The notes: a model not told the origin generated them from the letters alone. A stretch of 60,120 bases of DNA from Akkermansia muciniphila (GCA_945900455.1 CAMDJH010000005.1:1-60120); one strand, 5' to 3'. Positions 27,613 to 60,120 are shown, counted from the first letter of the stretch. A program made the numbers and translations.

Positions 27613-29475
27613 ATGTTGAAATCGAAGACTATCCTCGGGGTTGATTTTGGGGCCGGCTGCCTCAAGGCGGCCGAATTCGCTCCTGGCGACGACGGGGGGC
27701 TGAAGCTCCTCCGTTTCGCGGTGAAGCCGTTGGGCCTCGCAGGGTCTCAGGACGCCGCGCGTGACAACGTCGTCAAGAAAGCCTTTGGAGAATTGATTAC
27801 GGAGGGTGGATTCGTTGCCCGCGATGCCAATGTCTGCGCCCCCGGTTTCCAAGTCTTCTCCAAGTTTATCAAGCTGCCGCCGGTTGATACGTCCAAGGTC
27901 ACTCAGATAATTCAGTACGAGGCTCAGCAAAATATCCCATTTCCGTTGGCGGAGGCAGTTTGGGACTATCAGATCCTCGGAACGAGCACGGGTGGAGAAT
28001 TAGAGGTTCTTTTGGTTGCCATTAAGGCGGACCTCGTCGAAAAGCTGTTCAGCACGAGTGAATCCACCGGCCTACGAACACAGATGGTGGATGTTTCCAT
28101 GGCCGCGCTGGCAAATGCCTTCCGGTTCAATTATCCCGACGCGGAAGGATGCTCTCTCCTGATCGATCTCGGGGCGAAGACGAGTAATGTGCTCCTGTTT
28201 GAAAAGAACAAGTTCTACACCCGAGGCATCAATATTGGCGCGAATGCAGTCACCCAAGAGTTTGCCGCCGAGGCCAAATTGCCCTTTGCGGAAGCCGAGA
28301 AGTTCAAGATCTCAGACGGATTCGTCAGCCTTGGCGGTGCGTACGAGGAGCCCGACAACCCACGCCTCGCGACGGTATCCAAGGTAGCCCGTAACGTGTT
28401 GACTCGTCTCCATTTGCAGGTCAACCAGACGATCCAGTTTTACCGAACTCAGCAGGGTGGCTCGGTGCCATCCCAGGTTTATCTCTGCGGCGGTGGCTCC
28501 ATCATGCCTTATGCCACTCAGTTTTTTCAGGAAAAACTAAACCTGCCTGTCGAATTTTTTAACCCGTTCCGAAGTGTTCAGGTGGACGCAGGCGTCAATG
28601 TCGCCGAACTGGAAAAATATGCTCAGTGCTTCGGCGAAGTCGTTGGGCTCGGCCTTCGCAATATTGCCCAGTGCCCGGTCGAGTTAGACCTCACTCCGAA
28701 AGCTTCCAAGTCCCGACAAGAGTTCAACAGTAAGAAACCTTTCCTCGTCGGAGCTCTTGCCGCCCTTGCTTTGGGTGGTTTCGCGTATGGCTTCTTTAAT
28801 ACTCGGGTGGCGGAAGCCAAACAGAAGGCGTTGGACGATATCAAGGTCCAGTTGGATCCGCTGCAGAATACGGAAAGCCGCCTTAAGACTGAGGAGGCCA
28901 AACTCAAGGCGGCCACCGACGAAACAGAATTGCTGGCCGGGTTTGTCCGGGAGAAAACGTATTGGGGCGATATCCTTACCGAAATTCGCCGCGTCTTAAT
29001 GATGACGGAGGCGGGCACGCAGCAGAAACTCGGACGTCCGGCCGGGGTCTGGATCGACAAATTACTCTCGGTGGAGCCCACCAATCCGGATGGAGAGACC
29101 GCTGAAGAAGCCCCCGTAATGCGGTCGATGTTCATGGACCCTATCTTGATGAAGCGCTATGGCCTCAGAATGCCCGGCATGATGGCGCCTTCGGCGGATT
29201 CCGATTCAGCCGAGGGGACGGGAGCGGCGAAAAAACCCGAGAAAAACACGAACGAAGTCGCCACGGTGACTGTGACAATGCGCGCCGTCAGTCTCCGCCA
29301 GTCCAATCCGAACGCTGACAATGAGTTGGCGTATGACCTTCTGAATGAACTTAAGGCGAGTCGTTTTTTTGACGAAAAGGAGACCGTCCTCTCCGGCAAT
29401 CTGAATCAGGAGGAACATTCGCCGACATACACCTTCGACGTGAAGCTCAAATTGAAGCGTCCGATCAAGCTCTGA
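27613..29475 (+). CDS. pilM: Type IV pilus/T2SS assembly protein, PilM-PilN fusion (Amuc_1101-like)
   Basis: Actin-like GVDFGAG, YEAQQNIPFPL..WDYQ, LIDLGA, LCGGGS; PVELDLTP (PilN INLLP-like); TM helix; coiled coil and periplasmic domain. Confidence 0.88.
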   Translation: MLKSKTILGVDFGAGCLKAAEFAPGDDGGLKLLRFAVKPLGLAGSQDAARDNVVKKAFGELITEGGFVARDANVCAPGFQVFSKFIKLPPVDTSKVTQIIQYEAQQNIPFPLAEAVWDYQILGTSTGGELEVLLVAIKADLVEKLFSTSESTGLRTQMVDVSMAALANAFRFNYPDAEGCSLLIDLGAKTSNVLLFEKNKFYTRGINIGANAVTQEFAAEAKLPFAEAEKFKISDGFVSLGGAYEEPDNPRLATVSKVARNVLTRLHLQVNQTIQFYRTQQGGSVPSQVYLCGGGSIMPYATQFFQEKLNLPVEFFNPFRSVQVDAGVNVAELEKYAQCFGEVVGLGLRNIAQCPVELDLTPKASKSRQEFNSKKPFLVGALAALALGGFAYGFFNTRVAEAKQKALDDIKVQLDPLQNTESRLKTEEAKLKAATDETELLAGFVREKTYWGDILTEIRRVLMMTEAGTQQKLGRPAGVWIDKLLSVEPTNPDGETAEEAPVMRSMFMDPILMKRYGLRMPGMMAPSADSDSAEGTGAAKKPEKNTNEVATVTVTMRAVSLRQSNPNADNELAYDLLNELKASRFFDEKETVLSGNLNQEEHSPTYTFDVKLKLKRPIKL

Positions 29476-29481
29476 CCCGCT

Positions 29482-30546
29482 ATGGCCTGGATCAAGCGTA
29501 ATCTCTACTTCGTGCTCGGCCTCGCCGCCGCGGCAGTCCTGTTGGGTGTCGGTATCTGGTCCTCCCTCGGCAGAAAAGCCGCCGCCGACGAGGTAGCTTC
29601 AAATTTGGAAGCTGCATCCACGGGTCTGAATCAGTTGATCGACCGCAAGCCGTTTCCCAGCGAAGAAAACATCAAGGCCGCCCGCCTCGAAACCGAGCGA
29701 GTGCTCCAGTTTAAGACGAATTCCCTCAAGCGGTTCCCCGAAGTGGTTGTTTCCACCAACATGACGACGGCGCAGTTTAAAGCGCTTCTCGAAGTTGCCG
29801 TCACAGAATTGGAGCGTGTCGCGGAGCGAAACGGAGTCAAACTGCCCGCTAAGTATGGCTTTACGTTCGCTGAACAACGCAAAGAATTGGTTTTGGATGA
29901 GAAGAAGCTTCCCGTCCTGGCGGGCCAGGTTCTTGACATCCAGACCCTCTGCCGAATTATTTTCGAGGCACGTATCAATGAATTGAACACCGTGCGAAGA
30001 CCCACCCTAATGTCGAATGACATGGGAAGCAGTTTCCATTCACGAAAATCCAATCGCGACGACAAGGTTGGCCTTTTGGATACTCCGTACGAAATTTCCT
30101 TTAACTGCTTTTCTTCCGAACTGGCCGCTGTTCTGTCGGGCTTGGCCAATGCACCGCAGATGTTGGTGGTGAAAAGTATCAATGTTGAACGTAACGCGGC
30201 ACCGGAAACCGAAACCCCCTCTTCGACACCCTTTTCGACCGGAGGACTTCCCGGTGGAATGGACCCGATGATTGCGGCGCGGTACGGAATGCGCGGACGC
30301 TACGGCATGGGAGGTATGGGTGGCATGCCCCCACCGGTAACGCCTCCACCAGCTGCCAAGACGGGCGCGGAAATCGACGAGAAATTTGTTCGAGTGACAC
30401 TGGGTGTCAATGTTGTCCGGCCAGCGCCTGCTGGACCGAAAGCAGCTTCGGCTCCAAAAATGCCATCGGCTGAAACGGATCCTGCCGCTCCGGCTGCTCC
30501 CGCTGAAAACAAATCGGCTGCGGGCAAGGCGGATGATTCCCAGTAA
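29482..30546 (+). CDS. Amuc_1100-family (PilO/GspM-like) protein
   Basis: MAWIKRN + TM, PFPSEENI, Y.FTF..Q, PYEISF.C...ELA.VL; position between pilM and the secretin. Confidence 0.75.
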   Translation: MAWIKRNLYFVLGLAAAAVLLGVGIWSSLGRKAAADEVASNLEAASTGLNQLIDRKPFPSEENIKAARLETERVLQFKTNSLKRFPEVVVSTNMTTAQFKALLEVAVTELERVAERNGVKLPAKYGFTFAEQRKELVLDEKKLPVLAGQVLDIQTLCRIIFEARINELNTVRRPTLMSNDMGSSFHSRKSNRDDKVGLLDTPYEISFNCFSSELAAVLSGLANAPQMLVVKSINVERNAAPETETPSSTPFSTGGLPGGMDPMIAARYGMRGRYGMGGMGGMPPPVTPPPAAKTGAEIDEKFVRVTLGVNVVRPAPAGPKAASAPKMPSAETDPAAPAAPAENKSAAGKADDSQ

Positions 30547-30582: not shown

Positions 30583-31398
30583 ATGGACTTCATTAAGAAA
30601 CAATACGAGAAGATCCTTCTCAGTGCCGTCCTACTCGCCTTGGCAGTGGGTGCTTTCTTGCTGACCCTCCACGTCGAGAGCGTCAAGGCAAACATCGCGG
30701 AACAAGGTAAAGTTCGGAGCACTCGAACGAAGGCTGCATTGGTCCCAATGGATCTTTCGACAAATCTGGAAGCTCTTCAGCGCCTGTCCGGACCGATTGC
30801 GCTCAATTTTTCTGGCAGCCCTTCCTCTGGACACAATCTCGTTAACCCTCTCCGATGGATCAAGGACCGAAATAGCCAGGTGGTTCTTGAACGTCCCGGT
30901 GTTGGCCGCGGCCCTTCGGGCCTTTCCCTCACTCGGACAATTCCCTTACCGCTGCTCGTTTCGTACGAGGGGGCCGCCGGCACCGGAGAAGATCTTCGCT
31001 ACCTATTCCGCATCGAGAAGCAGTACGCCCGCAAGGCGGATGCCCGCCGGGCAACTGTCGTTTCGGTGACTTTGAATAACAAGACCCCGGACAGTCTGTT
31101 TTCTCTCCGTGAAGTCCGGGGCTCCAAAGAGGCTCCCACTGAAGTGGTCATCGAAATGCTCGACGGTGGAGAGCGACTTACCCTTACGCGGGAAAAACGC
31201 TTTTCACGCACCATGGGGTATATGGCCGATCTGAGGCAGGATTTCGATAACAAGAGTTTTTCGGGCAAGCGGTTGGATGAAACCGTCCCGATCGGTGGCA
31301 AGAACTACAAGGTTGTTGCCATCGGCAAAGATGAGGTTGTAGTCTCCGACCCCGAATCCCAGAAGCGTACGGTCATCCGTTCCGCCTCTACGCCCTGA
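30583..31398 (+). CDS. Amuc_1099-family-like protein (PilP/GspC position)
   Basis: MDFIKKQYEKILL N-terminal TM; C-terminal YKVVAIGKDEVVVSD beta domain; synteny. Confidence 0.65.
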   Translation: MDFIKKQYEKILLSAVLLALAVGAFLLTLHVESVKANIAEQGKVRSTRTKAALVPMDLSTNLEALQRLSGPIALNFSGSPSSGHNLVNPLRWIKDRNSQVVLERPGVGRGPSGLSLTRTIPLPLLVSYEGAAGTGEDLRYLFRIEKQYARKADARRATVVSVTLNNKTPDSLFSLREVRGSKEAPTEVVIEMLDGGERLTLTREKRFSRTMGYMADLRQDFDNKSFSGKRLDETVPIGGKNYKVVAIGKDEVVVSDPESQKRTVIRSASTP

Positions 31399-31435
31399 TT
31401 TCCAATTATTTTCAGTCATAAACGTGAAGAACCCC

Positions 31436-34327
31436 ATGTCTAAAGCGTCGTCTATTCTTGGTGCCTTGTTCCTCTGCATGGCCACGCACAGTGCTTTCGC
31501 ACAGTCCGGAGCTGCCCCCAATGCCGAAGAGGAGGCCGTGCGTCGTCAGGAGAAATCCGTCCTACTCCGCAAGACTCTCGAATCCGCCGACAGCGCCCGC
31601 AAGATCGGCGACCTACCCACTTCCGCCAAACTGTATGAGGATTCGTGGACTTTGGTGGAAAGCCTCGGTTCCGCCGCGGATGCCGAGCGTGCGGACACGG
31701 TGACTGGATTCACCAACGTGCGTCTTAGTCTCGCAGATCGAGCGGTGAAGGATGGACAATACAAAGAAGCCGACCTCCATATCGCCCGTGCACTAAAGGT
31801 GGACCCCAACAACCTGCGCGCACAAAAAATGAAGAGCGAGAATGACAAGAAGATGGCCGATTTGGTCGGGCAAACGCCAAGTGACGCCACGCAGGCGCTT
31901 GTTCCTGCTTTCCAGGAGAATGTGGTCAAATCCAGTACGATGGTGCAGGACGGCCGTCTGCTTCTGGAAATGGGCAAGCTCGATGAAGCCGAAAGCCGTT
32001 TGAAGGAAGCCGTAAAATTGAACCCTGAAAACTCAGGGGCCTACTACTACTTGAGCCTTGTCAAGGAGCGCCGCTTTAGTCGGGAACTAAAAAAGCGGGA
32101 ACAGGTTAGCAAAGACAAGTTGGTGGAGATCGAAAAGGCATGGAATCCTTCGAACACAGCAAAGCTCCTGCCGCAGCATTCGAACCCGTTTACCAGAACG
32201 AACCGGATCACCACCGGAAGTGGACGGCAGCTAATTCAGCACAAGCTCGACACGATTCATATCGATGATCTCAAATTTCCGGAATCTCTTAGTCTCGGTG
32301 AAGTGGTCAAGACTCTCGATGAACAGGCACGAAAACGTGATCCCGAAGGCAGAGGCATCAATTTCATCATTAGCTCTACGCTTGATCCGTTTACCCCGCA
32401 GGCGGCGACAACGGTCGATCCAGCCACCGGCCTGCCACAGGCCGCCCAGGCCGCCGAGGCTGTTGACCTTAATTCAATCAACATCCGCCTCTCAACGACG
32501 CTCCGAAATATACGTCTCACCGACGCGATCGACGCGATAATCAAGACCGCTGAGAAACCAATCAAAGTCTCAATCGAAGAATATGCGGTCATATTCACGC
32601 AGGCTCGGCCTGAACCGTTGCAGTTGTATACTCGACGATTTAGGGTCGATCCCAACACCTTCATGCAAGGTTTGGAAAGCGTTGTCGGTCAACCATTCGG
32701 TGACATCCAGGTCGGAGGGCAGGGCGGCGGCGGCGGCGGCGGTGGTGGTGGCGGCGGCGGCGGCAGTGGTGGCGGCCAAGGCGGAACCAGTATCTATAGC
32801 ATTCCCCGCGTTGAAGTATCGTCGCCGGTCTCGGGAGGTGGGGGATCAAGCGGCGGTGGTGGTGGTGGTAGTTCCGGTGGCGGTGGCGGTGGCGGTGGCG
32901 GTGGCTTCGGAATCGCCAACGTTTCACGCACAAACCTAATGGCCAATGTTCAGGTGCTCGTGCGCGACTTTTTCCGGGCTGCCGGCGTTGATTTTCCGCA
33001 AACTGTGGCGGCTGGACAAGGCGGCGGCGTTGGCGGTGGAGGGGGTGGGGCCGGCGGTGGTTTTGGCCTCGCGGCGCAGGGCGGCGATCCAGGTTCAAAT
33101 CAAAAGGCGCTCTTCTTCAATGATCGGACTGGAATTCTCTTCATCCGTGCCACTCTCTCCGATCTTGATATTATCGAACAGGCGATTCAGGCCCTCAATG
33201 TTGCTCCGCCTCAGGTTACCATCGAAACCAAGTTCGCCGAAGTTGTTCAAGCGGATAAAAAGGCTCTTGGATTCGATTGGTTCCTCGGGAACCTACTCTT
33301 CGGCGGAGGAGGTATAGTCGGTGCACAAGGTGGATCGGCCCCGACGATGGCAGGCAGGCCATCCAAGGCGAATCCCAGCGGTACTTTCCCGGGCTATCCG
33401 AGCTATCCTGACAACAACGGACCCTCCGCAACGCTCATTCCGACCACGCACATTCCAACGTCGCCCACGGATCAAAAAATCACCGGAGGAGTTCGCAATT
33501 CTGTCGCAACCACTCTTGGAGGCGATCTAACCCAGATCCCCGCCCTCGCCACGGTCACGGGGATCTTAACGGATCCACAGTTTCGCGTCGTCATCCGTGC
33601 CATCGAGCAACGAGATGGATCCGATTTGCTCTCCGCTCCAAAAGTAACCACACTCAGCGGACGTCAAGCTAAGATTCAGGTCGCTGACGTCCGAACCATT
33701 GTAACGGGCGTTGGCAACGGACAAGGTAACCAAAATGGTAACGGCGGATCGAGTGGTGGTGGTGGTGGTGGTGCTTCCAGTGGTGGTTCTGCCAATAATA
33801 TTTTCACCCCTGGGTCTGTGGCAATCACGTACTCGCTTCAGGCCATTCCGTTCGGCCCTGAAATGGACGTCATCCCTTATGTGTCCGCCGACGACGTCTC
33901 CATCCAAATGACCTTGATCCCAAGCTATACCGAATTCATCGGCTATGATGATCCGGGCGATTTCGTCCCTCAGGTTCAAGCGGTCGGTACTATCGCAGCG
34001 CAACCGCTCAAAGCGACATTGCCTCTGCCTCACTTTCGAGCGCGCTCTGTGACCACTTCCGCAATCGTTTGGGACGGACAAACGATCGTTCTCGGAGGTC
34101 TAATTGCTGAGGACGTTCGAAAATTGAAGGATAAAGTTCCGTTCTTGGGTGACATCCCGTTCCTGGGCCGCCTCTTCCGCAGCGAATCCAGCAGCACCGC
34201 GAAAAGGAACCTCATGATATTCGTTACGCCAACCATTGTGGATCCCGCCGGAAATCGGGTTCATGATCCAAACAATATGCCGTACGATCCTAATTCAGTC
34301 CCGTCCCAACCCACGGCCTCGCGCTAA
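31436..34327 (+). CDS. Secretin (PilQ/GspD family, Amuc_1098-like) with N-terminal TPRs and Gly-rich inserts
   Basis: Signal peptide; TPRs; PPQVTIETKF, DLLSAPKVTTLSG, DGQTIVLGGLI, KVPFLGDIPFLGRLFRS, NLMIFVTPTI; start 31424 or 31436. Confidence 0.95.
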   Translation: MSKASSILGALFLCMATHSAFAQSGAAPNAEEEAVRRQEKSVLLRKTLESADSARKIGDLPTSAKLYEDSWTLVESLGSAADAERADTVTGFTNVRLSLADRAVKDGQYKEADLHIARALKVDPNNLRAQKMKSENDKKMADLVGQTPSDATQALVPAFQENVVKSSTMVQDGRLLLEMGKLDEAESRLKEAVKLNPENSGAYYYLSLVKERRFSRELKKREQVSKDKLVEIEKAWNPSNTAKLLPQHSNPFTRTNRITTGSGRQLIQHKLDTIHIDDLKFPESLSLGEVVKTLDEQARKRDPEGRGINFIISSTLDPFTPQAATTVDPATGLPQAAQAAEAVDLNSINIRLSTTLRNIRLTDAIDAIIKTAEKPIKVSIEEYAVIFTQARPEPLQLYTRRFRVDPNTFMQGLESVVGQPFGDIQVGGQGGGGGGGGGGGGGGSGGGQGGTSIYSIPRVEVSSPVSGGGGSSGGGGGGSSGGGGGGGGGGFGIANVSRTNLMANVQVLVRDFFRAAGVDFPQTVAAGQGGGVGGGGGGAGGGFGLAAQGGDPGSNQKALFFNDRTGILFIRATLSDLDIIEQAIQALNVAPPQVTIETKFAEVVQADKKALGFDWFLGNLLFGGGGIVGAQGGSAPTMAGRPSKANPSGTFPGYPSYPDNNGPSATLIPTTHIPTSPTDQKITGGVRNSVATTLGGDLTQIPALATVTGILTDPQFRVVIRAIEQRDGSDLLSAPKVTTLSGRQAKIQVADVRTIVTGVGNGQGNQNGNGGSSGGGGGGASSGGSANNIFTPGSVAITYSLQAIPFGPEMDVIPYVSADDVSIQMTLIPSYTEFIGYDDPGDFVPQVQAVGTIAAQPLKATLPLPHFRARSVTTSAIVWDGQTIVLGGLIAEDVRKLKDKVPFLGDIPFLGRLFRSESSSTAKRNLMIFVTPTIVDPAGNRVHDPNNMPYDPNSVPSQPTASR
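32714..33086 (+). repeat. GGC/GGT trinucleotide runs encoding poly-Gly tracts in the secretin (a further tract at about 33713-33790)
   Basis: e.g. GGQGGGGGGGGGGGGGGGSGGGQGG and GGGGSSGGGGGGSSGGGGGGGGGG. Confidence 0.9.
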
Positions 34328-34456
34328 TCTCTAATTAGAGAAATCTCCGGAACCCCCACTTGGCTTGCAAATTGCTCCAATCACACTCGTAAATGATAGC
34401 TACCCGGTCAGTGAGCGGACAGATCAAGCTCGGCAACTTGACGAATGACGTCTCCA

Positions 34457-36360
34457 TGAGCACCTCTTACGTGCAACGGATCAAGATTGGAAGCCGCTGG
34501 TCTGACTCGCTTCGAATGCTACTTCCCGGGGTTTTGGCCTCGTTCGTTGGCCTGGGATTGCTCGCTGACGCCCTTCAGCCCGTCGGATCGGATTTCCTTC
34601 TGACGGGACATCTGCCCGGCGATCAGTTGAATCCGGATGCTGCCGCCAATGGGAATGGCGGTTATCTGGTCTGGCAGGACAATGCAACCGATGCTCAGGG
34701 ATTGGGAATCAGCGCCCGGAAAATCTCCGCTCAACTGACCGGTATTCTGAGCTCGTTTCGAGTTAATTCTATCGGTGGGGGCGATCAGGAAAATCCAACG
34801 GTGGGTCTCTTGTCCCACGGTGGTGCAGTCTTTGCCTGGCAGGGGGGGCGTCAGGGCTTTCAGCGCGTTTTTGGAAAAACCTTGGCCGCGGATGGTACTT
34901 TTCAGACGGATGATGTCGCTTTAAGCCCCGAGTCTCAACTTAACGCTGTCGCGCCTTCGGTGGCGGGCTTGGCCGATGGTTCTGCGGTAATTTGCTGGTC
35001 CGCCACCGGCGGGGATGGAGATATGATGGGGGTTTTCGCAAGACTACTAGCCCCAAATGGCTCCCCGATCGGAGGCGTTCTACAAATCAACCAGACTACC
35101 CGCTACAATCAGCGAACCCCCCGCATCACGGCGCTTTCGGACGGTGGTTTTGCCGTTGCCTGGATTTCCGAACAACAGCGTGGCGTCGGAACGGTGGATG
35201 TATTCGGCCGAATCTATTCACCCTCCGGTGAAGCGAAAACCAGCGAGTTCCGAATCAATACGGCCAATCGCACCTGTGGGAATCCAGCGGTTTGCCGTTT
35301 GTCCGGCGGCGGTTTCCTCGCTGCTTGGTCGGAAGCAGATCTAAAATCATCCGATGGCAACTGGTCGCTCGTATCGCGGTCCTTTGACGCAGCGGGCACG
35401 GCTCAATCCGACACTCAATTCCTTGCCCAGGAACCCGGTCGGGACGCTATCGCGGTCCGTCTGGAATCGATCGGCAATTCAATTTCAGCATCTTGGTTTA
35501 TTGCCGCACCCAATACTCGTACCTGGGCCGTTCAAGTACGCTCGATATCTGCCGATGGGCGGTCGTTCGGAGAGACAATCACTTCCCTCAATACCGCCGT
35601 CGCCAGCTTCCAATCTCGCCCTCTCTTTATCGGTGATCCGAATGGCGCTGCGCTCCACGTTTGGCCCCGGTTTGAAGGGATCGACGCGGGCGTGGACTTA
35701 GTCGGACAGCGCTTCGCCCCGACGGCCCTGCCTCTCTCCGCCCCTGACCGTCCGCTCGTCAACGCGATTTCACCCAGTCGGCTCAGCGTTACTTGGCCCG
35801 AAATGGAAGGTCTGCCGATCGTCGGCTTCGAGATCAGTTTCGACGGTGGGCAATCGACACCCTGCACCACCAGCTACTGTCTTTCTCCGCTCTTCCTTCC
35901 AGGTACGACCCACAACGTTCGACTCGCCTACCGGTTGAGCGACGGGCGTGTATCCCCTCTTTCGGAAGCCACCGCGGCGACTACCTGGGGCGAAGACGCC
36001 AATGGGGATGGCCTCCCGGATGATTGGCAACGACTCTACTGGGGCGAGGATGACAGGGCATGGCCTTCTGTCAGTGCCGATTCGGACGGTGACGGCGCCG
36101 ATAATGCGACGGAATTCCGCACCGGAACGAGTCCCGTAGATCCCACTAGTGTTCTTCGCATGAGAATCGAATCGTCGTCCCTGAGCCCCCTGCTGACCTG
36201 GAACACCCAGCCCGGTTTTGTTTATACATTGGAGGTCAGCTCTGATCTCAAACAATGGCGGAAGACGGGTTCGCCAAGGTTTGCGCATGGATCCGTCGAT
36301 TCAGTACCCATTAACGGCGATCTCCTCCGCACCTTTTACCGGGTGACACGTCTTCGTTGA
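34457..36360 (+). CDS. Exported beta-propeller-repeat protein with FN3-like domain, DxDGDG (TSP3-like) Ca motifs and conserved C-terminal domain
   Basis: At least 5 repeats F.VN...G.Q..P.V..L..GG.V..W; DANGDGLPDDWQ..DSDGDG..N..EF..GT.P.D; ends TFYRVTRLR; start uncertain (34393/34457/34517). Confidence 0.75.
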
Positions 36361-36365
36361 AGCCT

Positions 36366-37970
36366 ATGATTCGTCTTTTTCCCATATTCGGGTTGGTGGC
36401 AGCACTCTTGGTCTCGGGTAGTCGCGTTTGCGGCTTCGCAGTCCTCGGTCAGCAGGAGGAGTGGATGGACGCCGAGCTTACGTACTTCACCGACGCCGAC
36501 CCCAATGGCATCATTGATATTGGCGGACCCAAGAATCTGGGCGATGAATACCGCTGGCACTCTGCGGTTTTCACGTACGCCCTCGACCTTGGCTTCGTGA
36601 ACTATTTCGGAAGCGACGGTATTCGGGCGGTCGACGCCGCCTTTCAGATTCTCAACAGTCTTCCCCCTGCGAGCCAGATGTCTGAACTGTTGTCAGAATT
36701 CCCAAACGACACTCGCCGATTCAATGGAACCGCATCTGCGTTGGGGGTTGCTGACCTGAAGACGTTTGTTCTTAGCTATGCCCTCTCATCGCTCGGTGTC
36801 GGAGCAGCCGAACGATGGGTCTATACTCTGCGCGACCGGTTTCTCCGCGATACGATTCCGTTCTACACGGTGATTCAACGAAATTTTGATCCCGTGACCT
36901 TGAATCCATCCCTGTATGTCAACGGTCAATTATACTCCTACAACGTGCAGCAGGTATCAATTAATCCGGACCGCTGGGATGCATCCGAACGGCCTGTCTT
37001 GCCCGGGATTCCGTCGTTCAGCACCGTTGCCAGTTTCATGAACGGTCATCAAGGATTGTCCGACGGCGTGTTTGTCACCGGGCTGACCCGCGAGGATGTC
37101 GGGGCGTGGCGCTATCTCTATTCCCCGTACAATTATAATTTCACTATTTTGCCCACCAATGTCGTTGCCTCCCCGGGGAAACTACCCACCAATCCTCAAA
37201 TAACAACCAATAGTCCGGGTGTTTTCATCGATCTTAATTCCCTGCTTTCGGTCGTTACATCTCCCTGGGATGTTCCCGGAAGCATCCTATTTTTTGGCGG
37301 CTCAAATAATACATCCGGATCCATTTCGAACCCGAATCTGAACGGTCCCGCATGGGGCCTTCCCGGAAACATCGCGTTCTTCACCAACGGAACCCCGGGG
37401 ACGGGGGGAGGTTCATCGGATGGAACTTCAATTCTTCCGAGCAGCGTCGATGGAAACGGCGGTAAAGTTCGCGGTGGGATCGATAAAATTGTGTTCGTTC
37501 GCGTGCCTTACGACTCGGTGGTGGGTGTGATCCCCGGAATTCCCAATGTCCGCTACCAAGATCGGTTTGTTGTAAATGGACAGGTTAGAACCCAAATTGT
37601 GCAGCGCATAATCAACGTTCCAGACTTACTCATTTCTGCGGCAGATGCTGGGACAAGAGACGGGGTTCCGATCCGATCCTTCATCAGTGGTGACACCTTC
37701 CGTTGGGACAATTACCTTCGGAATTATTATTCCACCAACACTCTTGTTTCTCCCCCTCTACTGGGCCTTGAATCGATCGTGGGCCCCGGAAGTGTGCAGA
37801 CGCCGATTTTCTTGACGATTAACAAACTTGGAGCGTTCAGAATTCAACGCGAAGGCCCGGGAGGAGGATCCTTGCCAGCGACTTGGGGGTGGTTTGATGG
37901 ATCAACCAATCCTCCAGTGGTCTTCCCGGTTGGCACCAGTCTTCGTGATCTGGAAATAACCGTTCCGTAA
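36366..37970 (+). CDS. Exported protein with degenerate matrixin/metzincin-like domain
   Basis: Signal peptide; YRW...FTYALD..IRAVDAAF; DLKTFVLSYALSSLGV in register with DLxxVAxHExGHxLGL; GLTREDVGAWRYLY; start ATG 36366 or TTG 36357. Confidence 0.65.
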   Translation: MIRLFPIFGLVAALLVSGSRVCGFAVLGQQEEWMDAELTYFTDADPNGIIDIGGPKNLGDEYRWHSAVFTYALDLGFVNYFGSDGIRAVDAAFQILNSLPPASQMSELLSEFPNDTRRFNGTASALGVADLKTFVLSYALSSLGVGAAERWVYTLRDRFLRDTIPFYTVIQRNFDPVTLNPSLYVNGQLYSYNVQQVSINPDRWDASERPVLPGIPSFSTVASFMNGHQGLSDGVFVTGLTREDVGAWRYLYSPYNYNFTILPTNVVASPGKLPTNPQITTNSPGVFIDLNSLLSVVTSPWDVPGSILFFGGSNNTSGSISNPNLNGPAWGLPGNIAFFTNGTPGTGGGSSDGTSILPSSVDGNGGKVRGGIDKIVFVRVPYDSVVGVIPGIPNVRYQDRFVVNGQVRTQIVQRIINVPDLLISAADAGTRDGVPIRSFISGDTFRWDNYLRNYYSTNTLVSPPLLGLESIVGPGSVQTPIFLTINKLGAFRIQREGPGGGSLPATWGWFDGSTNPPVVFPVGTSLRDLEITVP

Positions 37971-38004
37971 AACCCATAGTGCTCACTTTGTGCTAGGAAG
38001 AACC

Positions 38005-41000
38005 ATGAAGTTTTCTGTAATTGGAACCGCGTTATTCCTGGCCGTGATGGCTTTGGACATGGCAGCCCAGTCCGTATATCTGAATACTCAGAATGCCACT
38101 GCCCCAGACCAGATCGATGCCACCATTTTCATTAACCGCGGTACGTTTACCGCCGATCGGACCCTGCTGCCTTATGACTTCCAAAACACGTTGGTGTTTA
38201 CGAACAAGGGATTGATGGACGGCGTTCTTTCGGGAGGCGGTGGGTTCGGATTTTTTGCAAGTGTGTTCGCGGGCTATCGCTTTGATTACACGGATAGCTT
38301 GGGTGTTCGGAGACCTTCCCAAATATTTTTCAACTCCGACGCTGGCAAAGTTGACCTCGGAACCGAGGTGGCGGACCTGACCCAGTTGGGGTCCTTTCCA
38401 ACCCTTGATATCCGGGCCACCAATATTGTCAGCCGCGGCGAGCTGTCGGCTAGTGCAATTGGTGTCATTCGACTGACGGGAGATCACGTCGATCTTCGTG
38501 AGGGACTCATCAATGTCAGACCGCTTTTATCCGGGTCTGCATCGTCATCGACCAATGATTTCAATCCGGATGTCGCCCTGCAGGATGTCGCGTGGGGAAT
38601 CGGTGAAGTGGGTGTAAAACTTTCCTCCTTCGTTACCATCACCACTAAGACAGCGCCGACCAAGCTGCCATTTCTTGCGAGTGCCCTCACACCACGGTAT
38701 ATCGAAACAAATGTTGCAGGGCGTGAATTTCGGGACATTATCGCCATCCCATCGACCCCGATTGACCCCGCACCGGCCCACTTCTTTATCAACAAACTGA
38801 GCGAATCCAATCAATTCGTCCAAGGGGTGATTTTGCGTATTACGGATCCGACGATCCAGTCCAAGGTCACGTTTCATAATGTTGAACTGCCGGACGATCC
38901 CTATGGCCGGGTACTGGTTGACGTTTTCACGACGGAGCGAAACGAAATTACGGGTGTCCTTGACGAGCGCCATCTATATATCTTGGACGATTTAGCGAAA
39001 GGTCTGACACCAGTCTTTCTAACGAACCTCAATACGCTGAACACTTTCCGACCCTCGAATTTTGATGTTCGCCGAAGCCGTCCTCCGGGTCTGGACAAAG
39101 GTTCCATTTCGAACGCCCCGGTAGTCCCTGTGGATCTATTCACGAAATATTTCAACAAGGCCTACCCGTCTGGGTTGGACTATACCAACAAGACGGTGAC
39201 GAATATTTATTCCGCGTATCATGTGAGGGTGTCGGACCCCACGGACTCTTCAACTGGCACGGGTTTTACCGATGCCAGCCTCGGGGCCCTTCAATATTCC
39301 GGTCGAGTTGAGATCGATGCCAATGTTCTTGATATGACTCACACCCGTATTCGCGCTGAGGGTGCCGTATCGATCAAGGCCAATCATTTGCTAAACCTGG
39401 ATAGTGCCTTCATTGATTCGCCAAGGCTTTATTATGACATCGGAACGACCAACGAGGTCCTGGATCTGAAGCCCCTCAGCAAAAAGCAAGTGACGCGGTT
39501 GGATGGGAATGTTCGGATGTTCTCAACCCAATGGACCAATTTCGTCGAAGTGACGATTACGAATCCCCCCGTTGCGGCGGCTGCCAGTGTTCCGCGGGGA
39601 GCAAAATTGGCGAGCAATGGAGAAGGAGAAGGGGGAGGGGGTACCACCGAAGGGACTACGGAAACCTTGCACTTCGAAACCGGCTTTCACGTGCTAGTCG
39701 TTGATATTGGCCTTACCGCACTTCAACCCGTCGACGTCAAGAGCCTGACGACGCATGCCAAGCACGTGACGATCCCGGACAATGTTGCGATCAGTGGGAG
39801 TCTTCTCATGGATGCAACCGACCTCACGATCGGGGGCGACTTCTCGGCGCCCGAATTCAGTTCCGTGACAAATTTTCCGAACCTCACCTTGCTTACTAAC
39901 AAGGGTTCTATTTTCACGGGTTCCAGGGATATTCACTTGGGGGACCAGGGATCCCCAAAGATGGAAGTAATCCAGAACTCCGGACAGATCATCGCGTCCG
40001 GTCAGTTTTACAAAACAGATCGTTTTGTGAACCGAGGTTTTATGACCAACAGTGGTCAGCAGGAGATCGGAATTGAGAGCAAGACCTTGATTATGGAGAA
40101 TGGAACGATGGGTTCCATGGGTGAGGTCATGCTCAAGACCGAGGATTTTGTGACGCTCGACAACACGCTGGTCTCCGGATCCTTCCTGACGATGGATATC
40201 AGTTCGAGCGTTACGGATACGGTCGCGCGGCGTGGTTCCACCATTTCAGCCGGCCGCGGTATTACCTTGGTTCGGAAGCCCCAGCGCGGTGATTTTATGG
40301 CGACAAGGGTCCAGCTCGCTCTGCCTGCGCTTTATCGATCGGCAACTCTGAATTGGGCGGGGAGTGACGTGGGAGTGAATGTAACGGGCTTTACCAATAA
40401 TGCTGCCGTCGGAATTCTATCGTTGCGGGGCGACACGGGCGCCCGGTTTGACGTTACCGGATCTTCCGGGCCGGGAGCGATCTACGTTGATTTGCTCGAT
40501 ATCGGCACGAACATGCTGAAGGAGCTTGATTCGTTCCTAAACATTGCGCCGAATTTTACCATCTACTACGCGGCGGCGACCAATGTATTGGCCGAAGTTC
40601 TCGACGGAAAGCTGGACGGACGGCTTCGTTGGGTGTCTGCGTATTTGGGACCCTACAGCACGGTCGAAGTTGCTCTTGAGAGTGGTGAAGTCGTGAAGGT
40701 CAACAAGGGCGTCGCAGAAAGTTTGAAGCTGGATTACGATGGGGACGGTATACCAAACGGATTGGATCCAAGCCCTTTCGAGCGACCCGTAGTGAAGATT
40801 GATTCCATCTCCGTGGTGAACAAGCCGCCCCGGACCGCCATTGTGGTTTGGACGGCAGCGCCAGTCTCCTCCTATATACTCGAGAGCATCAGCACGTTGA
40901 AGTCCACGAATTGGGTTACGGTGAAGTCGATCTTTAACCCCGCCACGGCGCCTGCTCCGCTCTCGGTCGAAGACGTGGTTCCCCCCTCCAGCACAGAGAA

Positions 41001-41031
41001 ATACTATCGATTGCGCTTGGTGCTTCCGTAA
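38005..41031 (+). CDS. Large exported beta-rich (beta-helix-like) protein with DxDGDG motif and conserved C-terminal domain
   Basis: Signal peptide MKFSVIG..AAQ; repeated N-x-G-x-(I/F/M) turns; DYDGDGIPN; ends KYYRLRLVLP. Confidence 0.75.
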   Translation: MKFSVIGTALFLAVMALDMAAQSVYLNTQNATAPDQIDATIFINRGTFTADRTLLPYDFQNTLVFTNKGLMDGVLSGGGGFGFFASVFAGYRFDYTDSLGVRRPSQIFFNSDAGKVDLGTEVADLTQLGSFPTLDIRATNIVSRGELSASAIGVIRLTGDHVDLREGLINVRPLLSGSASSSTNDFNPDVALQDVAWGIGEVGVKLSSFVTITTKTAPTKLPFLASALTPRYIETNVAGREFRDIIAIPSTPIDPAPAHFFINKLSESNQFVQGVILRITDPTIQSKVTFHNVELPDDPYGRVLVDVFTTERNEITGVLDERHLYILDDLAKGLTPVFLTNLNTLNTFRPSNFDVRRSRPPGLDKGSISNAPVVPVDLFTKYFNKAYPSGLDYTNKTVTNIYSAYHVRVSDPTDSSTGTGFTDASLGALQYSGRVEIDANVLDMTHTRIRAEGAVSIKANHLLNLDSAFIDSPRLYYDIGTTNEVLDLKPLSKKQVTRLDGNVRMFSTQWTNFVEVTITNPPVAAAASVPRGAKLASNGEGEGGGGTTEGTTETLHFETGFHVLVVDIGLTALQPVDVKSLTTHAKHVTIPDNVAISGSLLMDATDLTIGGDFSAPEFSSVTNFPNLTLLTNKGSIFTGSRDIHLGDQGSPKMEVIQNSGQIIASGQFYKTDRFVNRGFMTNSGQQEIGIESKTLIMENGTMGSMGEVMLKTEDFVTLDNTLVSGSFLTMDISSSVTDTVARRGSTISAGRGITLVRKPQRGDFMATRVQLALPALYRSATLNWAGSDVGVNVTGFTNNAAVGILSLRGDTGARFDVTGSSGPGAIYVDLLDIGTNMLKELDSFLNIAPNFTIYYAAATNVLAEVLDGKLDGRLRWVSAYLGPYSTVEVALESGEVVKVNKGVAESLKLDYDGDGIPNGLDPSPFERPVVKIDSISVVNKPPRTAIVVWTAAPVSSYILESISTLKSTNWVTVKSIFNPATAPAPLSVEDVVPPSSTEKYYRLRLVLP

Positions 41032-41173: not shown

Positions 41174-41764
41174 ATGATTGCGATTGGCATAACCGGTGGA
41201 ATTGGGATGGGTAAATCCACGGCCGCGGCGTGGTTGTGCAAGCGAGGAGAATCGGTCTGCGACACGGATATTCTCGCCCGGGATTTGGTTATGCCCGGCC
41301 AACCCGCTTTGAAGGAGATCGTCGATCGGTTTGGGCCCACTGCCTTGGAGCCGGATGGTCAACTCGATCGACGATGGCTCGCGGAACGGGTTTTCACGGA
41401 TGATTCAGCTCGGAATCAACTTGAGCAAATCCTGCACCCGAGGATTCATGAGAAATGGAAATCCTGGGTGACGCAAGCCGGTCTCCAGGGCGCTACCCGT
41501 GCGTTCGTGGTGATCCCGTTGCTTTTTGAAAAGGGCTACCAATCGGAGTTCGACCAAGTAGTTTGCCTCGGGTGCACGGCCGGAACCCAGCGGCGTCGAT
41601 TGCGTGAAAGGGGTTGGAACGACTCCCAAATCTCGCAACGAAATGCGACGCAATTGACGACCGATTTCAAAATGGCTCATTCCAATTTTGTCGTCTGGAC
41701 GGAAGGGCTCCTGGCGGTTCATGAATCCCAGTGGACTCTTGTTTTGGCGAGGCTTGGGGGCTAA
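41174..41764 (+). CDS. coaE: Dephospho-CoA kinase
   Basis: GITGGIGMGKST, LDRRWLA..VF, LEQILHP, IPLLFE. Confidence 0.93.
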   Translation: MIAIGITGGIGMGKSTAAAWLCKRGESVCDTDILARDLVMPGQPALKEIVDRFGPTALEPDGQLDRRWLAERVFTDDSARNQLEQILHPRIHEKWKSWVTQAGLQGATRAFVVIPLLFEKGYQSEFDQVVCLGCTAGTQRRRLRERGWNDSQISQRNATQLTTDFKMAHSNFVVWTEGLLAVHESQWTLVLARLGG

Positions 41765-49574: not shown

Positions 49575-52382
49575 TCAGCGCAGGGTAACAAAATCGTTGT
49601 GGTTGATCAGAGCCCAAATCAGGTGGGCGCGGGCTGGGTCTTCGGTTCCTGCGGAGTCGGTGATCTCGGGATATTTGCGCCAAGCATCCAATGCGAGCTG
49701 GCTTTGGGCGACTTCAGCATTGCCGGCGGCGAAGCCTAACACCGCTTCGAAGGCGCTCCGAATAAAGGCCTCGTCGTCCATGGGGTGGTTGGCACCGGAT
49801 TCTTCCCGATGGCTCAGGCGGGTCGCAATCTGGGCGGCGGCGTCCAAGGCGAGTCGGCTGTTGGAAAGTGCCAGGGCTTGCTGTGGCACAATCGTCTGCT
49901 CGCGCCGATAGCACTCTTTCACGTTCGCTTCGTCGAAGGTTGTGAGGAAAAGGTTTCGGTCGTTGTTCGAGTGATAGAAGTAGAGGCTGCGCCGCGTGGA
50001 CGCGGCCTGATCTGAGGACGCCACCGAGGGTCCACCGAGGGTCAAGTCGAGGATGCCGGCCATGGATAGCATCGAGTCGCGGACAACTTGAGCTTCCAGT
50101 CGGATCGGTGACCGACGCCACCAGCGGAGGTTGTCCGGATCTTTCGCACCATTGAGTTCCGCTCCGGCGACCGAGGAATTCATGCGGTAGGTGGCCGAGT
50201 TTACGATGAGGCGATGCAGGTGTTTCAGACTCCACCCGCTGTCGATCAATTCACAGGCAAGCCAATCAATCAGCTCGCGGTGAATCGGTGGCGGGCTCTT
50301 GCGTCCGAAATCGAAAACGGTGGCCACTAACGGAGTTCCGAGATGCCGGTTCCAAAGATGATTGACGGCGACTCGAGCGGTTAGCGGGTTGCGAGCATCG
50401 GTGATCCACTCGGCCAGGGCCTTGCGTCGCCCCGTGCTCTTCGGTTGGAAAGCCACGGTGGGGTCGTCCTTGGTCGAATCGAGAAACCGCGTCGGGGTCC
50501 AGAGAGCTCCGGGCAGTCGGGCATACGATTCATCCTTGCCGACAGGGGCCGCGAATTGCTGCTGGGCTTTATCGAGGGCTTCTTGAGCTTTTTTGAGATC
50601 TTTTTCGACGGAATCCTTTTTGTCCGCCGCGGCCTGAAGCCGCTTGAGCTCGGCGGTGGCGAGACCGTGGCGTGCTTTGGCGAGGGCCACGTCACGCTCG
50701 GCGCGGACTGCGGCATGATTCGCGTCGATTTCGACCGGTGCCCGGGAGGGATTGATTTCGGGATTTCGGCTGTCCTTTCGGGCCCAGGATGCCTGCATGG
50801 ATTCCGAGCGCCGTTCGACGCTGGTGAACTCGGTCTGCGCCAACGCCAGGGTCGACTCGGCGAGCCGCAATTCGCCTTGCGCTTCAGCGATCGCGTTGGT
50901 CGCGGTTGGGGCGTCGGTTCTCTGAAGTCTCTGGAGTTTGGCTTGGGCTTTCTCGAGAGCCGCCGCCAGAGGCTCGATTTTTGACTGCGCTGCGGCTCGA
51001 TGCCCAGCCAACACCCAGGGACGGCGTTCGGGCTCCCAGGCTTCGTTGGGCAGCGTCACAGCCTGGATCCTCAGTGGACTGAACGTTAGAACGGAAGGGA
51101 TTCCTGGGGCGAGGGGGTTCGCCTTGTCCGGGTTGTTCTCCTGGCCCCGAACGAAGCGGTAGGTGGGATTGTCGGGCCAGCCGTCGTAGGCTCGGGGGAT
51201 GCCATCGCGAGCGAGATCCGCCTCTCCGGGCAGGCCATCCAAGCGGACGTGGTACGGTTCGAAAAACGCCCGCATCCGATAGAAATCCTCTTGAGAAAAG
51301 GGGTCGTACTTGTGGTCATGACATTTGGCGCAATTCAGCGTCAGGCCGAGCAACCCTTTGCTCACGTGTTCGACCGTTTCCTCGAGCCACTGATTGCGAT
51401 TGAACAGGAAAAAATTGCGGGCCAAATAGCCGGAGGCGCGCAGTTTGCTGAGGTCGTTTGGATACAGTTCGTCCGCGGCGAGCATTTGTCGGATCATTTC
51501 GTCGTAGGGCAGATCTGCATTCAACGATTCCACGATCCAATCCCGCCAGTGCCAGATGTGTTTCTGGCTATTCCGCAGTTGGTCACCCAGGCCCCACCAA
51601 TCGCTGTAGCGCCAGATGTCCATCCAGTGCCGTGCCCAACGTTCGCCGTGGCGCGGATCTTCCAACAGACGTTCGACGGTTCGCTCGTACCAATCCGGCG
51701 AGGGATCGCGCTCGGCGGCCGCCATCTCGCCCGCCGTTGGCGGCAGGCCGACGAGATCAAGATGCAGGCGCCGCAACAATATCGGACGGCCGGCTTCCGG
51801 CTGATGGGTAAGCGAGTGAGCTTCGTGTTCCCGTGCGATGAAGGCGTCGATTGGGTTCTTCAGCCAGGCCGGGTCGCGGGTCATCGGCGGTGCCGGGCGT
51901 GTTTGGGGGCGAAAAGCCCAATGCTCCGATGGATCCGCCTCGGGTTGCTCGTCGGTCGGTGCGGGGGCGCCGGCCTGGATCCACTCCCGGACACGCCGGA
52001 TCTCCGATTCGGAAAACGGCTCGCCTTCATGCTCGGGCGGCATGCGTTCCTTGAGGTCGCCCGTGGACATGCGCGCGATCAGGGGACTCTTGCCGGCGTC
52101 TCCCCGCTGCAGAGCCGGTCCGGACTTCCCACCCTTGATCATGAGTTCGACGGTGTCCAACCGCAGCCCCGACTTTTGCTTGAGGGCTCCGTGACACGGA
52201 GTGCAATGAATCCGAAACAAGGGTTTGATGTCCTTGGGGTAGTCAATGTCGCCGCGCGCCATCGATAGCAGTAGGCTCATCGCGAAAGCCGGCAAGACAA
52301 CGAGCGGCGCCGCACGGCGCCGGCGCTGTTGAGCGCAGGGCGCACTGGGTAGAGTCGCGGAGCGATTCAGCGCGGGAGCCAT
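49575..52382 (-). CDS. Planctomycete cytochrome c plus DUF1549/DUF1553 (PSCyt1/PSCyt2/PSD1) protein
   Basis: CTPCHG, HWAF, NPIDAFI, GERWARHWMD, CAKCHDHKYDP, NPLTARVAVN, PQQAL. Confidence 0.92.
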   Translation of the reverse strand: MAPALNRSATLPSAPCAQQRRRRAAPLVVLPAFAMSLLLSMARGDIDYPKDIKPLFRIHCTPCHGALKQKSGLRLDTVELMIKGGKSGPALQRGDAGKSPLIARMSTGDLKERMPPEHEGEPFSESEIRRVREWIQAGAPAPTDEQPEADPSEHWAFRPQTRPAPPMTRDPAWLKNPIDAFIAREHEAHSLTHQPEAGRPILLRRLHLDLVGLPPTAGEMAAAERDPSPDWYERTVERLLEDPRHGERWARHWMDIWRYSDWWGLGDQLRNSQKHIWHWRDWIVESLNADLPYDEMIRQMLAADELYPNDLSKLRASGYLARNFFLFNRNQWLEETVEHVSKGLLGLTLNCAKCHDHKYDPFSQEDFYRMRAFFEPYHVRLDGLPGEADLARDGIPRAYDGWPDNPTYRFVRGQENNPDKANPLAPGIPSVLTFSPLRIQAVTLPNEAWEPERRPWVLAGHRAAAQSKIEPLAAALEKAQAKLQRLQRTDAPTATNAIAEAQGELRLAESTLALAQTEFTSVERRSESMQASWARKDSRNPEINPSRAPVEIDANHAAVRAERDVALAKARHGLATAELKRLQAAADKKDSVEKDLKKAQEALDKAQQQFAAPVGKDESYARLPGALWTPTRFLDSTKDDPTVAFQPKSTGRRKALAEWITDARNPLTARVAVNHLWNRHLGTPLVATVFDFGRKSPPPIHRELIDWLACELIDSGWSLKHLHRLIVNSATYRMNSSVAGAELNGAKDPDNLRWWRRSPIRLEAQVVRDSMLSMAGILDLTLGGPSVASSDQAASTRRSLYFYHSNNDRNLFLTTFDEANVKECYRREQTIVPQQALALSNSRLALDAAAQIATRLSHREESGANHPMDDEAFIRSAFEAVLGFAAGNAEVAQSQLALDAWRKYPEITDSAGTEDPARAHLIWALINHNDFVTLR

Positions 52383-59899: not shown

Positions 59900-60120
59900 C
59901 GTCTCCCGCACCCGATAGTCAAAGGGGACCGTGGCAAAAATTCAAGGCTGTGTGAGCAGTTCCTACTCCGAAGGGTGCATCTCACGGAAAGGGTGGTTTT
60001 CTCGAGTGACAGTAAGATGAGATAAAAAATGCGCTGAGATTGCGAAGAGATTGTGGTCAGCCAGAAGGCTGGACGGAGAACTGCGCGTGTGGGAATAACT
60101 GCTGCCAGTAGCCGTTTCGC

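Follow-up and report, generated by a model that had tools for sequence, protein, structure and literature searches.

The stretch analysed here, referred to as the window, is a contig of 60,120 nucleotides from Akkermansia muciniphila (GCA_945900455.1, CAMDJH010000005.1:1-60120), part of a 6.43-Mb genome that comprises 420 contigs and is 90% complete. It encodes three exported proteins, P1, P2 and P3, whose C-terminal ~70 residues (the tail) are, judged by sequence, ordinary members, divergent in the case of P3, of a very large and uncatalogued domain family. The tail is a portable module of unrelated, mostly Sec-exported proteins of the Verrucomicrobiota, in which it is usually the last domain; it is also found immediately after signal peptides and in tandem arrays. 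P1 and P2 lie in a gene series behind a secretin gene, and an earlier note on this DNA had proposed that the shared domain is a sorting signal, analogous to the C-terminal domain (CTD) of the type IX secretion system (T9SS), or serves in surface anchoring. The family has the appearance of an end-module in general use on exported proteins, rather than of a tag tied to the adjacent secretin channel. The three proteins, their tails and the associated motifs are located as follows; E values for the tails were obtained with hidden Markov models (HMMs) built without any window sequence.

34393-36360, plus strand: P1, exported protein, 655 residues as the longest open reading frame (ORF); propeller-like repeats, followed by DxDGDG motifs and the tail; orthologues at 20/20 syntenic loci
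35992-36162, plus strand: two DxDGDG motifs of P1 (TSP3-like, calcium-binding type), residues 535 and 563
36154-36357, plus strand: tail domain of P1, residues 588-655; E = 3e-7
37990-41031, plus strand: P2, exported protein, 1013 residues; a region without a known family is followed by a DYDGDG motif and the tail
40726-40791, plus strand: DxDGDG motif of P2, residue 915
40789-41028, plus strand: tail domain of P2, residues 934-1013; E = 2.5e-5 and 2.2e-7
56297-59911, minus strand: P3, exported Ig-repeat protein with a divergent tail, 1204 residues; Pfam Ig_3 and I-set
56300-56506, minus strand: tail domain of P3, residues 1136-1204, at the exact C-terminus; E = 0.018 and 0.0012

An alignment of the three tails yields pairwise identities of 22-29%. 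Common to all of them are a Trp, a Tyr, a Leu, a second Trp and an aromatic-aromatic-Arg motif that precedes the stop by 4-5 residues. An HMM built from only these three sequences returned more copies elsewhere in the genome, mostly at C-termini. When the window-free HMMs were searched against the 37,354 ORFs of the genome, the P1 tail was recovered at the right place (31.6 bits for the value listed, and E = 7e-5 with a further model), as was the P2 tail, while the scores for P3 were lower (16.3 and 20.7 bits, respectively). On these E values, the tails of P1 and P2 are therefore solid members of the family at the sequence level, and that of P3 is a divergent member of borderline significance. 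The statement of the earlier note that three exported proteins of the window end alike is thus upheld, with P3 as the borderline case, and so is its description of the passengers as unrelated, given that P3 consists of Ig repeats and that neither P1 nor P2 matches a Pfam family at E values up to 1. The shared domain it described exists as well, but its size is nearer 70 residues than the ~60 proposed. Export is seen for the three proteins themselves, each of which has a hydrophobic, signal-like N-terminal segment by eye, although in P1 this presupposes translation from an internal start, at residue 42 (nt 34516); for carriers genome-wide, it is documented only in part, as detailed below.

Upstream of the tail, P1 and P2 both contain the DxDGDG motifs that the note had reported. 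P3 has no such motif, and throughout the genome only 25/135 tail copies have one within 70 residues upstream. The corresponding Pfam family TSP3_bac (PF18884) was matched in 2/43 tail segments, on the DxDGDG stretch that precedes the domain, and in 3/40 carriers; a scan of the whole P1 and P2 proteins gave no TSP3_bac match although the pattern is present. On sequence grounds, the motif is thus a frequent neighbour of the tail that lies outside the domain. The N-terminal two thirds of P1 (34393-36000, plus strand) are built from a Gly-Gly-aromatic-x-Val/Ala-Ala-Trp unit that is repeated about five times and has no family match, and presumably resemble a β-propeller type known from large calcium-binding exoproteins.

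To place the domain among known folds, 43 tails were scanned singly against Pfam and NCBIfam at E values up to 1. Scattered sub-threshold matches were obtained but no family covering the domain, and the fibronectin type III family (Fn3, PF00041) matched none of the 43. An AlphaFold2 model calculated from the alignment of these tails (predicted local distance difference test, pLDDT, 81.5; predicted template modelling score 0.69) is a small sandwich of six strands. A Foldseek search with this model returned Fn3 domains of cytokine receptors, tissue factor and fibronectin as the nearest solved structures, with a best E value of 0.05 and probabilities of up to 0.98, which is a weak match. The VIA-align scores are weak as well, with a fragment of tissue factor on top (Z = 6.7, r.m.s.d. 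= 3.0, 66 aligned residues), followed by two hits at Z = 5.9 each, among them the Fn3-like protein 3mpc from Clostridium thermocellum; the T9SS CTD of PorZ (Z = 5.3) is one of dozens of Ig-like folds that tie. At the sequence level, the tail profile matches 3mpc with an E value of 7.8e-5, and the alignment places the aromatic-aromatic-Arg strand of the tail onto the Fn3 F strand, which reads Tyr-Tyr-Tyr-Val-Val in 3mpc. The alignment stops at this strand; 3mpc continues for 29 more residues, and nothing in the tail corresponds to the Fn3 G strand. In tandem arrays from other organisms, which have a period of about 75 residues, the next copy starts about 10 residues past the motif, and the absence of the G strand is therefore intrinsic to the family. 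The motif occupies the last strand, after which the chain has 3-6 more residues, the last of them often a Pro that marks the domain boundary. We are thus highly confident, from model and sequence together, that the tail is an autonomously folding, six-stranded Fn3-like β-sandwich of about 70 residues, in essence an Fn3 domain ending after strand F, and we class it as a six-stranded Fn3-like variant outside PF00041. The terminal β-sandwich that had been anticipated is accordingly seen in the model and occurs on many unrelated exported proteins. Look-alikes in the ESM Atlas are unnamed clusters from Verrucomicrobiota, and a search of the full-text literature for the tail found nothing. A relation to CBM32 was considered, as the tail profile aligns over 55 residues with the chitosan-binding CBM32 modules 2rv9, 4zxe and 4zy9 (E = 2e-5). 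Homology to the whole CBM32 domain was rejected because of a poor superposition (Foldseek rank 48, template modelling score 0.35, r.m.s.d. 13), and the match looks like a shared strand-loop-strand motif.

A tail HMM iterated to convergence over all ORFs of the genome detected 135 copies in 131 ORFs. The great majority (113/135) end no more than 10 residues from the C-terminus, 4 lie at 11-50 residues and 18 beyond. Counted by protein, 114/131 carriers have a terminal copy and 17/131 have non-terminal copies only, so that the hits, which the note had expected always at the C-terminus, are predominantly but not strictly found there, and internal copies, which it had named, if frequent, as an observation that would speak against a sorting signal, do occur. 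In the terminal carriers, the motif is mostly followed by 4-5 residues, and 58/113 end in Pro, against 11% in the background. The passengers are diverse. Forty carriers drawn at random from 82 eligible ones gave matches to 54 different Pfam families, which include subtilase, thermolysin, cyclophilin, FGE-sulfatase, CotH, LTD, YHYH and Ig domains. The note had likewise expected all hits on signal-peptide proteins. Here, a signal-peptide heuristic flagged 61/113 carriers compared to 1256/4487 background genes, and it misses real signal peptides, including that of P3; an earlier version of this heuristic flagged 39% of the background and was discarded as too crude. Export of the carriers is plausible from their passengers and from inspection, and is in this sense partly shown. 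Several giant proteins lack a C-terminal copy and have a single one close to the N-terminus (C8:24004-32061, minus strand; C187:9428-13063, plus; C53:7188-13961, plus; C178:1624-3546, plus), and the copy of the C53 protein follows directly behind a signal-peptide-like segment.

The presence of two carriers inside the secretin operon had been taken as the key hint to a sorting function. The genome has about 4,836 genes, of which about 125 are carriers, and 20/125 carriers have another carrier at most two genes away, compared to 10.6 expected by chance (maximum 24 in 1000 shuffles). This clustering is only about two-fold, and two carriers in one operon therefore amount to a weak hint.

Beyond this genome, a search of 1.84 billion public cluster representatives returned 93,631 matches at E values up to 1e-3 and 5,850 at 1e-10. 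The 150 representatives with the highest scores, a ranking biased to multi-copy proteins, were scanned again locally: a copy closes the protein in 113 of them, many of which have 2-10 strong copies arranged in tandem. The remaining 37, all giant proteins, show numerous weak matches in internal positions, probably to generic Fn3-like repeats. Across a sample of 401 genomes from the phylum, the tail was detected in 185. It is rare in the Akkermansia-like genus g8 (2/28 genomes, both weak) and in family f23 (2/65). For 40 other genomes, the top match of each was inspected: 36 are followed by a stop within 10 codons, three run on for at least 60 codons and one is at a contig end; the model used for this check was built from terminal copies and hence favours them.

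The genes around P1 and P2 form a closely packed series on the plus strand that begins with a PilM-like gene and ends with coaE. In addition to P1 and P2, it comprises the following genes.

27613-29475, plus strand: PilM-like protein, operon gene 1; 620 residues, exceeding the length of PilM; Pfam PilM_2 at 120 bits over residues 9-350; kept in 20 syntenic loci
29482-30546, plus strand: Amuc_1100-like protein, 354 residues; NCBIfam Amuc_1100_fam at 62.6 bits, below the cut-off of 180; conserved in position
30583-31398, plus strand: 271-residue protein in the slot ahead of the secretin; no Pfam or NCBIfam family; orthologues at the syntenic loci
31424-34327, plus strand: PilQ-like secretin with an N-terminal tetratricopeptide repeat (TPR) region, 967 residues; Pfam Secretin at 114.5 bits (cut-off 27.5) and TPR; NCBIfam Amuc_1098_fam (NF042912) at 342.9 bits, below the curated cut-off of 750
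36357-37970, plus strand: P4, exported protein without a tail, between P1 and P2, 537 residues; family of order-restricted distribution
41174-41764, plus strand: coaE (dephospho-CoA kinase), the downstream boundary of the locus; NCBIfam TIGR00152 at 139 bits; trails the secretin block here and in other families

The earlier note had suggested recognition of the tail by this secretin and a test of its co-occurrence with the Amuc_1098-1101 locus. Secretin-type genes, as detected with the Amuc_1098 family model, are present in 393/401 genomes, and their co-occurrence with the tail is therefore uninformative. A secretin-type gene without any tail is found in at least 208 genomes. Above the curated Amuc_1098 cut-off there are 29 genomes, of which 13 have tails (3 of them weakly) and 16 have none. 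A P4 profile built from 21 sequences detected the family in only 4/401 genomes, namely three of this order and one weak match, compared to 185/401 for the tail. The cassette formed by P1, P4 and P2 is therefore specific to the order and the tail is not; the domain is thus common far outside the genomes with this operon extension. In 20 tail-positive genomes from 20 other families, the 14.5 kb behind the secretin gene (two loci being shortened by contig ends) contained a single, marginal carrier (E = 9.6e-4), 11.7 kb away and beyond coaE, which speaks against recognition by the neighbouring channel. The usual content there is a gene of about 290 residues, a gene of about 700 residues and coaE. 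We conclude that one order has inserted the P1-P4-P2 cassette between a PilMNOPQ-like secretin operon and coaE, and that the link between tail and secretin is weak. The linkage of secretin and coaE is kept across many families of the phylum, in which the ~290- and ~700-residue genes occupy the place that P1, P4 and P2 have in this order.

Among relatives, the cassette is well preserved. P4 homologues are present in 37/41 relatives of the same family and order, and 20 syntenic loci, taken from 20 genomes, all keep the order of the pilM-like gene, the Amuc_1100-like gene, the 271-residue gene, the secretin gene, P1, P4 and P2, with coaE ending the block wherever the fetched stretch extends that far. 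In 9 of these loci, an additional tail carrier of 800-1850 residues comes next after the cassette. The tail is found on 17/20 P1 orthologues and, above threshold, on 14/19 complete P2 orthologues, while three further P2 orthologues give sub-threshold terminal matches (8.6-16.3 bits) with the motif. Judged by these matches, the two operon carriers are conserved across relatives. In one relative (G433), the P1 and P2 orthologues have no tail, and both end in another module of about 100 residues that is similar between them. A second relative (G434) has this alternative module on its P2 orthologue, and its P1 is truncated. At the loci with both ends readable, the combinations of end types on P1 and P2 are tail and tail in 16 loci (the three sub-threshold P2 tails included), alternative and alternative in one, none and alternative in one, and none and tail in one, with no mixed locus. 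Such matching ends fit cooperating proteins that share an address or a partner, but the evidence is anecdotal. Matches to the alternative module number 4 in G433, 8 in G434 and 10 in G330, with none in G000 and G410, and Fn3-like tails are still present in G433 (109 matches) and G434 (60). The alternative C-terminal module is located at L069:11488-11802 (minus strand), L069:5361-5675 (minus strand) and L056:14454-14768 (plus strand).

P4 itself has no relative in Pfam or NCBIfam. Its model has a pLDDT of 66.2, with a confident N-terminal domain (residues ~55-270, pLDDT 85-93), and a Foldseek search against the PDB gave no match better than E = 1.7. Local matches over 34-48 residues to the catalytic domains of matrix metalloproteases (E about 2.5-3) were not counted, and no HExxH motif was seen in the translation. 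On the minus strand, the gene immediately downstream of P3 encodes a tail-less protein with LTD and CotH kinase-like domains (54134-56239), and beyond it lies a PSCyt1/PSCyt2/PSD1 protein of the planctomycete type (49575-52382).

What the tail does can be proposed only tentatively. We favour a non-covalent retention or docking module, by which exo-enzymes, adhesins and the cassette proteins would be held at the cell surface through binding of the tail to a common envelope component. The logic would be analogous to that of SLH, GW, LysM or choline-binding repeats. We read the tail in this way because, like anchoring modules, it is found at either end of a protein and several times over in one chain, and because the cassette proteins keep matching tail types. 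The tandem arrays and the copies right after signal peptides in giant proteins resemble the behaviour of a binding module and not that of a signal; that P1, P2 and, in nine loci, the further giant protein all carry the tail is tag-like. As a single statement, the Fn3-like end-module family together with a role in surface retention or docking is a proposal to which we give slightly less than an even chance. Several observations weigh against it. The conserved Trp, Tyr, Leu and aromatic-aromatic positions are Fn3 core residues and give no sign of a binding surface. Export of the carriers is only partly documented by the heuristic described above. The bias to the C-terminus could stem from spread by recombination at 3' ends rather than from function, and the 40-genome check of this bias is skewed by its model. 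The pattern of matching tails depends on one locus with two alternative ends and one with none and alternative. Finally, 184/185 tail-positive genomes have a secretin-type gene, with which a route through the secretin is compatible.

The last point bears on the alternative of a folded C-terminal export signal, similar to the T9SS CTD, which the PilQ-like secretin would recognise for passage across the outer membrane. A translocation signal read by the secretin is less likely than retention, and taken by itself we regard it as improbable. In its favour are the marked C-terminal bias on exported proteins, the order-wide presence of P1, P2 and often a third carrier in the secretin operon, the N-terminal TPR region of the secretin, and the presence of the PorZ CTD among the structural ties. 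The near-universal secretin genes, however, deprive the co-occurrence of any meaning, the tail-free genomes with a secretin are numerous even above the Amuc_1098 cut-off, the operon linkage is confined to one order, and internal, N-terminal and tandem copies misfit a terminal translocation signal. One tail-positive genome (G204) gave no secretin match at all, but 8,000 bases were outside the search, and it is unusable as a counter-case. A passive structural module is a stronger contender, although still unlikely. The tail would then be a truncated Fn3 spacer or folding cap with neither targeting nor binding activity, brought to its terminal position by recombination at 3' ends. This is in line with the conservation of core residues, with the stalk-like tandem arrays that the same unit builds, with the frequent use of Fn3-like modules as linkers of bacterial exo-enzymes, as in 3mpc and 5g56, and with the lack of any co-varying machinery in the tests run. 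Ordinary Fn3 linkers, however, are located between domains, whereas 84% of the copies here are terminal, with a fixed overhang of 3-6 residues and a Pro-rich end; moreover, the family is huge and lineage-restricted, and the cassette proteins retain one tail type jointly. Very improbable, in our view, is an assembly internal to the cassette, in which P1, P2 and the variable fourth protein would use their tails to dock onto P4 or onto each other and would form a secretin-associated surface complex. The invariant P1-P4-P2 order in 20/20 loci, the position of P4 as the sole tail-less member and the lack of loci with mixed tail types would suit such a complex, but the rarity of P4 compared to the tail excludes it as a general partner, and about 129 other carriers of the genome are encoded outside the cassette.

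Returning to retention at the surface, a bolder version is conceivable, in which the tail would act as an address tag common to the proteins of a so far undescribed pathway for surface sorting or retention in free-living Verrucomicrobiota, and in which, in this order, the tagged P1, P2 and variable giant protein, together with P4, would be wired into the PilMNOPQ-type secretin operon. We consider this speculative and rather improbable. If it were true, the secretin would be a candidate conduit and P4 a candidate adaptor, and the joint swap of P1 and P2 to a second tail type in one relative would represent a second address.

How Verrucomicrobia and their relatives position giant exo-proteins and enzymes on or past the outer membrane is poorly understood. 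Against this background, a single small domain closes about 2-3% of the proteins of this genome and, with its many thousands of cluster matches, is in no domain catalogue. The family is a practical handle that would allow better annotation, and it marks the probable exoproteome of these soil and freshwater bacteria. What is shown is a large, uncatalogued six-stranded Fn3-like family that is portable, mostly terminal and present on diverse exoproteins, with a tie to an operon in one order only. For the finding in the window itself, the value is mainly negative, in that the link to an Akkermansia-type secretin is restricted to that order.

Compared with known systems, the core of the locus, with its PilM-like, Amuc_1100-like, small and TPR-secretin proteins, is similar to the pilus-like Amuc_1098-Amuc_1102 cluster of Akkermansia muciniphila, whose PilQ (Amuc_1098) is the outer-membrane protein of highest abundance in that species (PMC4960237). 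It differs from this cluster in that the scores of the window proteins are below the curated cut-offs and in that P1, P4 and P2 follow the secretin in the order to which the window belongs, while the Akkermansia-type genus g8 is nearly devoid of tails. The T9SS CTD of type A (TIGR04183, or PF18962 Por_Secre_tail) of the Bacteroidota is also a small Ig-like sandwich, and it forms the very end of many unrelated exported proteins, dozens to hundreds per genome. The T9SS CTD models, however, have no match in P1-P3 or in the 43 tails at E values up to 1. The sole Por_Secre_tail match in the genome (C120:16464-16589, minus strand) is marginal at 22.3 bits and lies within an ORF of 3615 residues, outside any tail and 2968 residues short of the end of the ORF. 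A search of this 90%-complete genome for PorV (NF033710) gave no match, with a positive control in Bacteroides; the search for SprA (TIGR04189) had no match in any control genome and is uninformative. Unlike the strictly C-terminal, single-copy CTD, the tail also exists in internal, N-terminal and tandem positions, and it is not known to undergo cleavage or attachment to lipid or lipopolysaccharide. PEP-CTERM, the exosortase signal (TIGR02595), is likewise a C-terminal feature of many exported proteins of Verrucomicrobiota. It consists of a short motif, a transmembrane helix and basic residues, unlike the tail, a soluble folded domain that ends in a β-strand plus 3-6 residues, and none of the 8 PEP-CTERM-like ORFs found in the genome with a pattern of our own, not an HMM, has a tail.

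The nearest structural matches, although weak, are the Fn3 domains (PF00041; 3mpc), with which the tail shares the β-sandwich core, the Trp of strand B, the Tyr of strand C and the aromatic pair of strand F, as well as the occurrence on extracellular bacterial enzymes. The differences are that the tail has six strands compared to the seven (A-G) of Fn3, that the protein ends 3-6 residues past strand F, that a near-invariant Arg takes the place of the third aromatic residue, and that the tail is overwhelmingly the last domain and not a linker. In logic, the nearest parallel is offered by SLH, GW, LysM and choline-binding repeats, which are portable and fold autonomously, are placed at either end of a protein, often in multiple copies, and serve many unrelated passengers. 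These repeats have no relation to the tail in sequence or fold. A further difference is that the host is a diderm, so that the target of the tail would be a component of the outer membrane or of the surface glycans.

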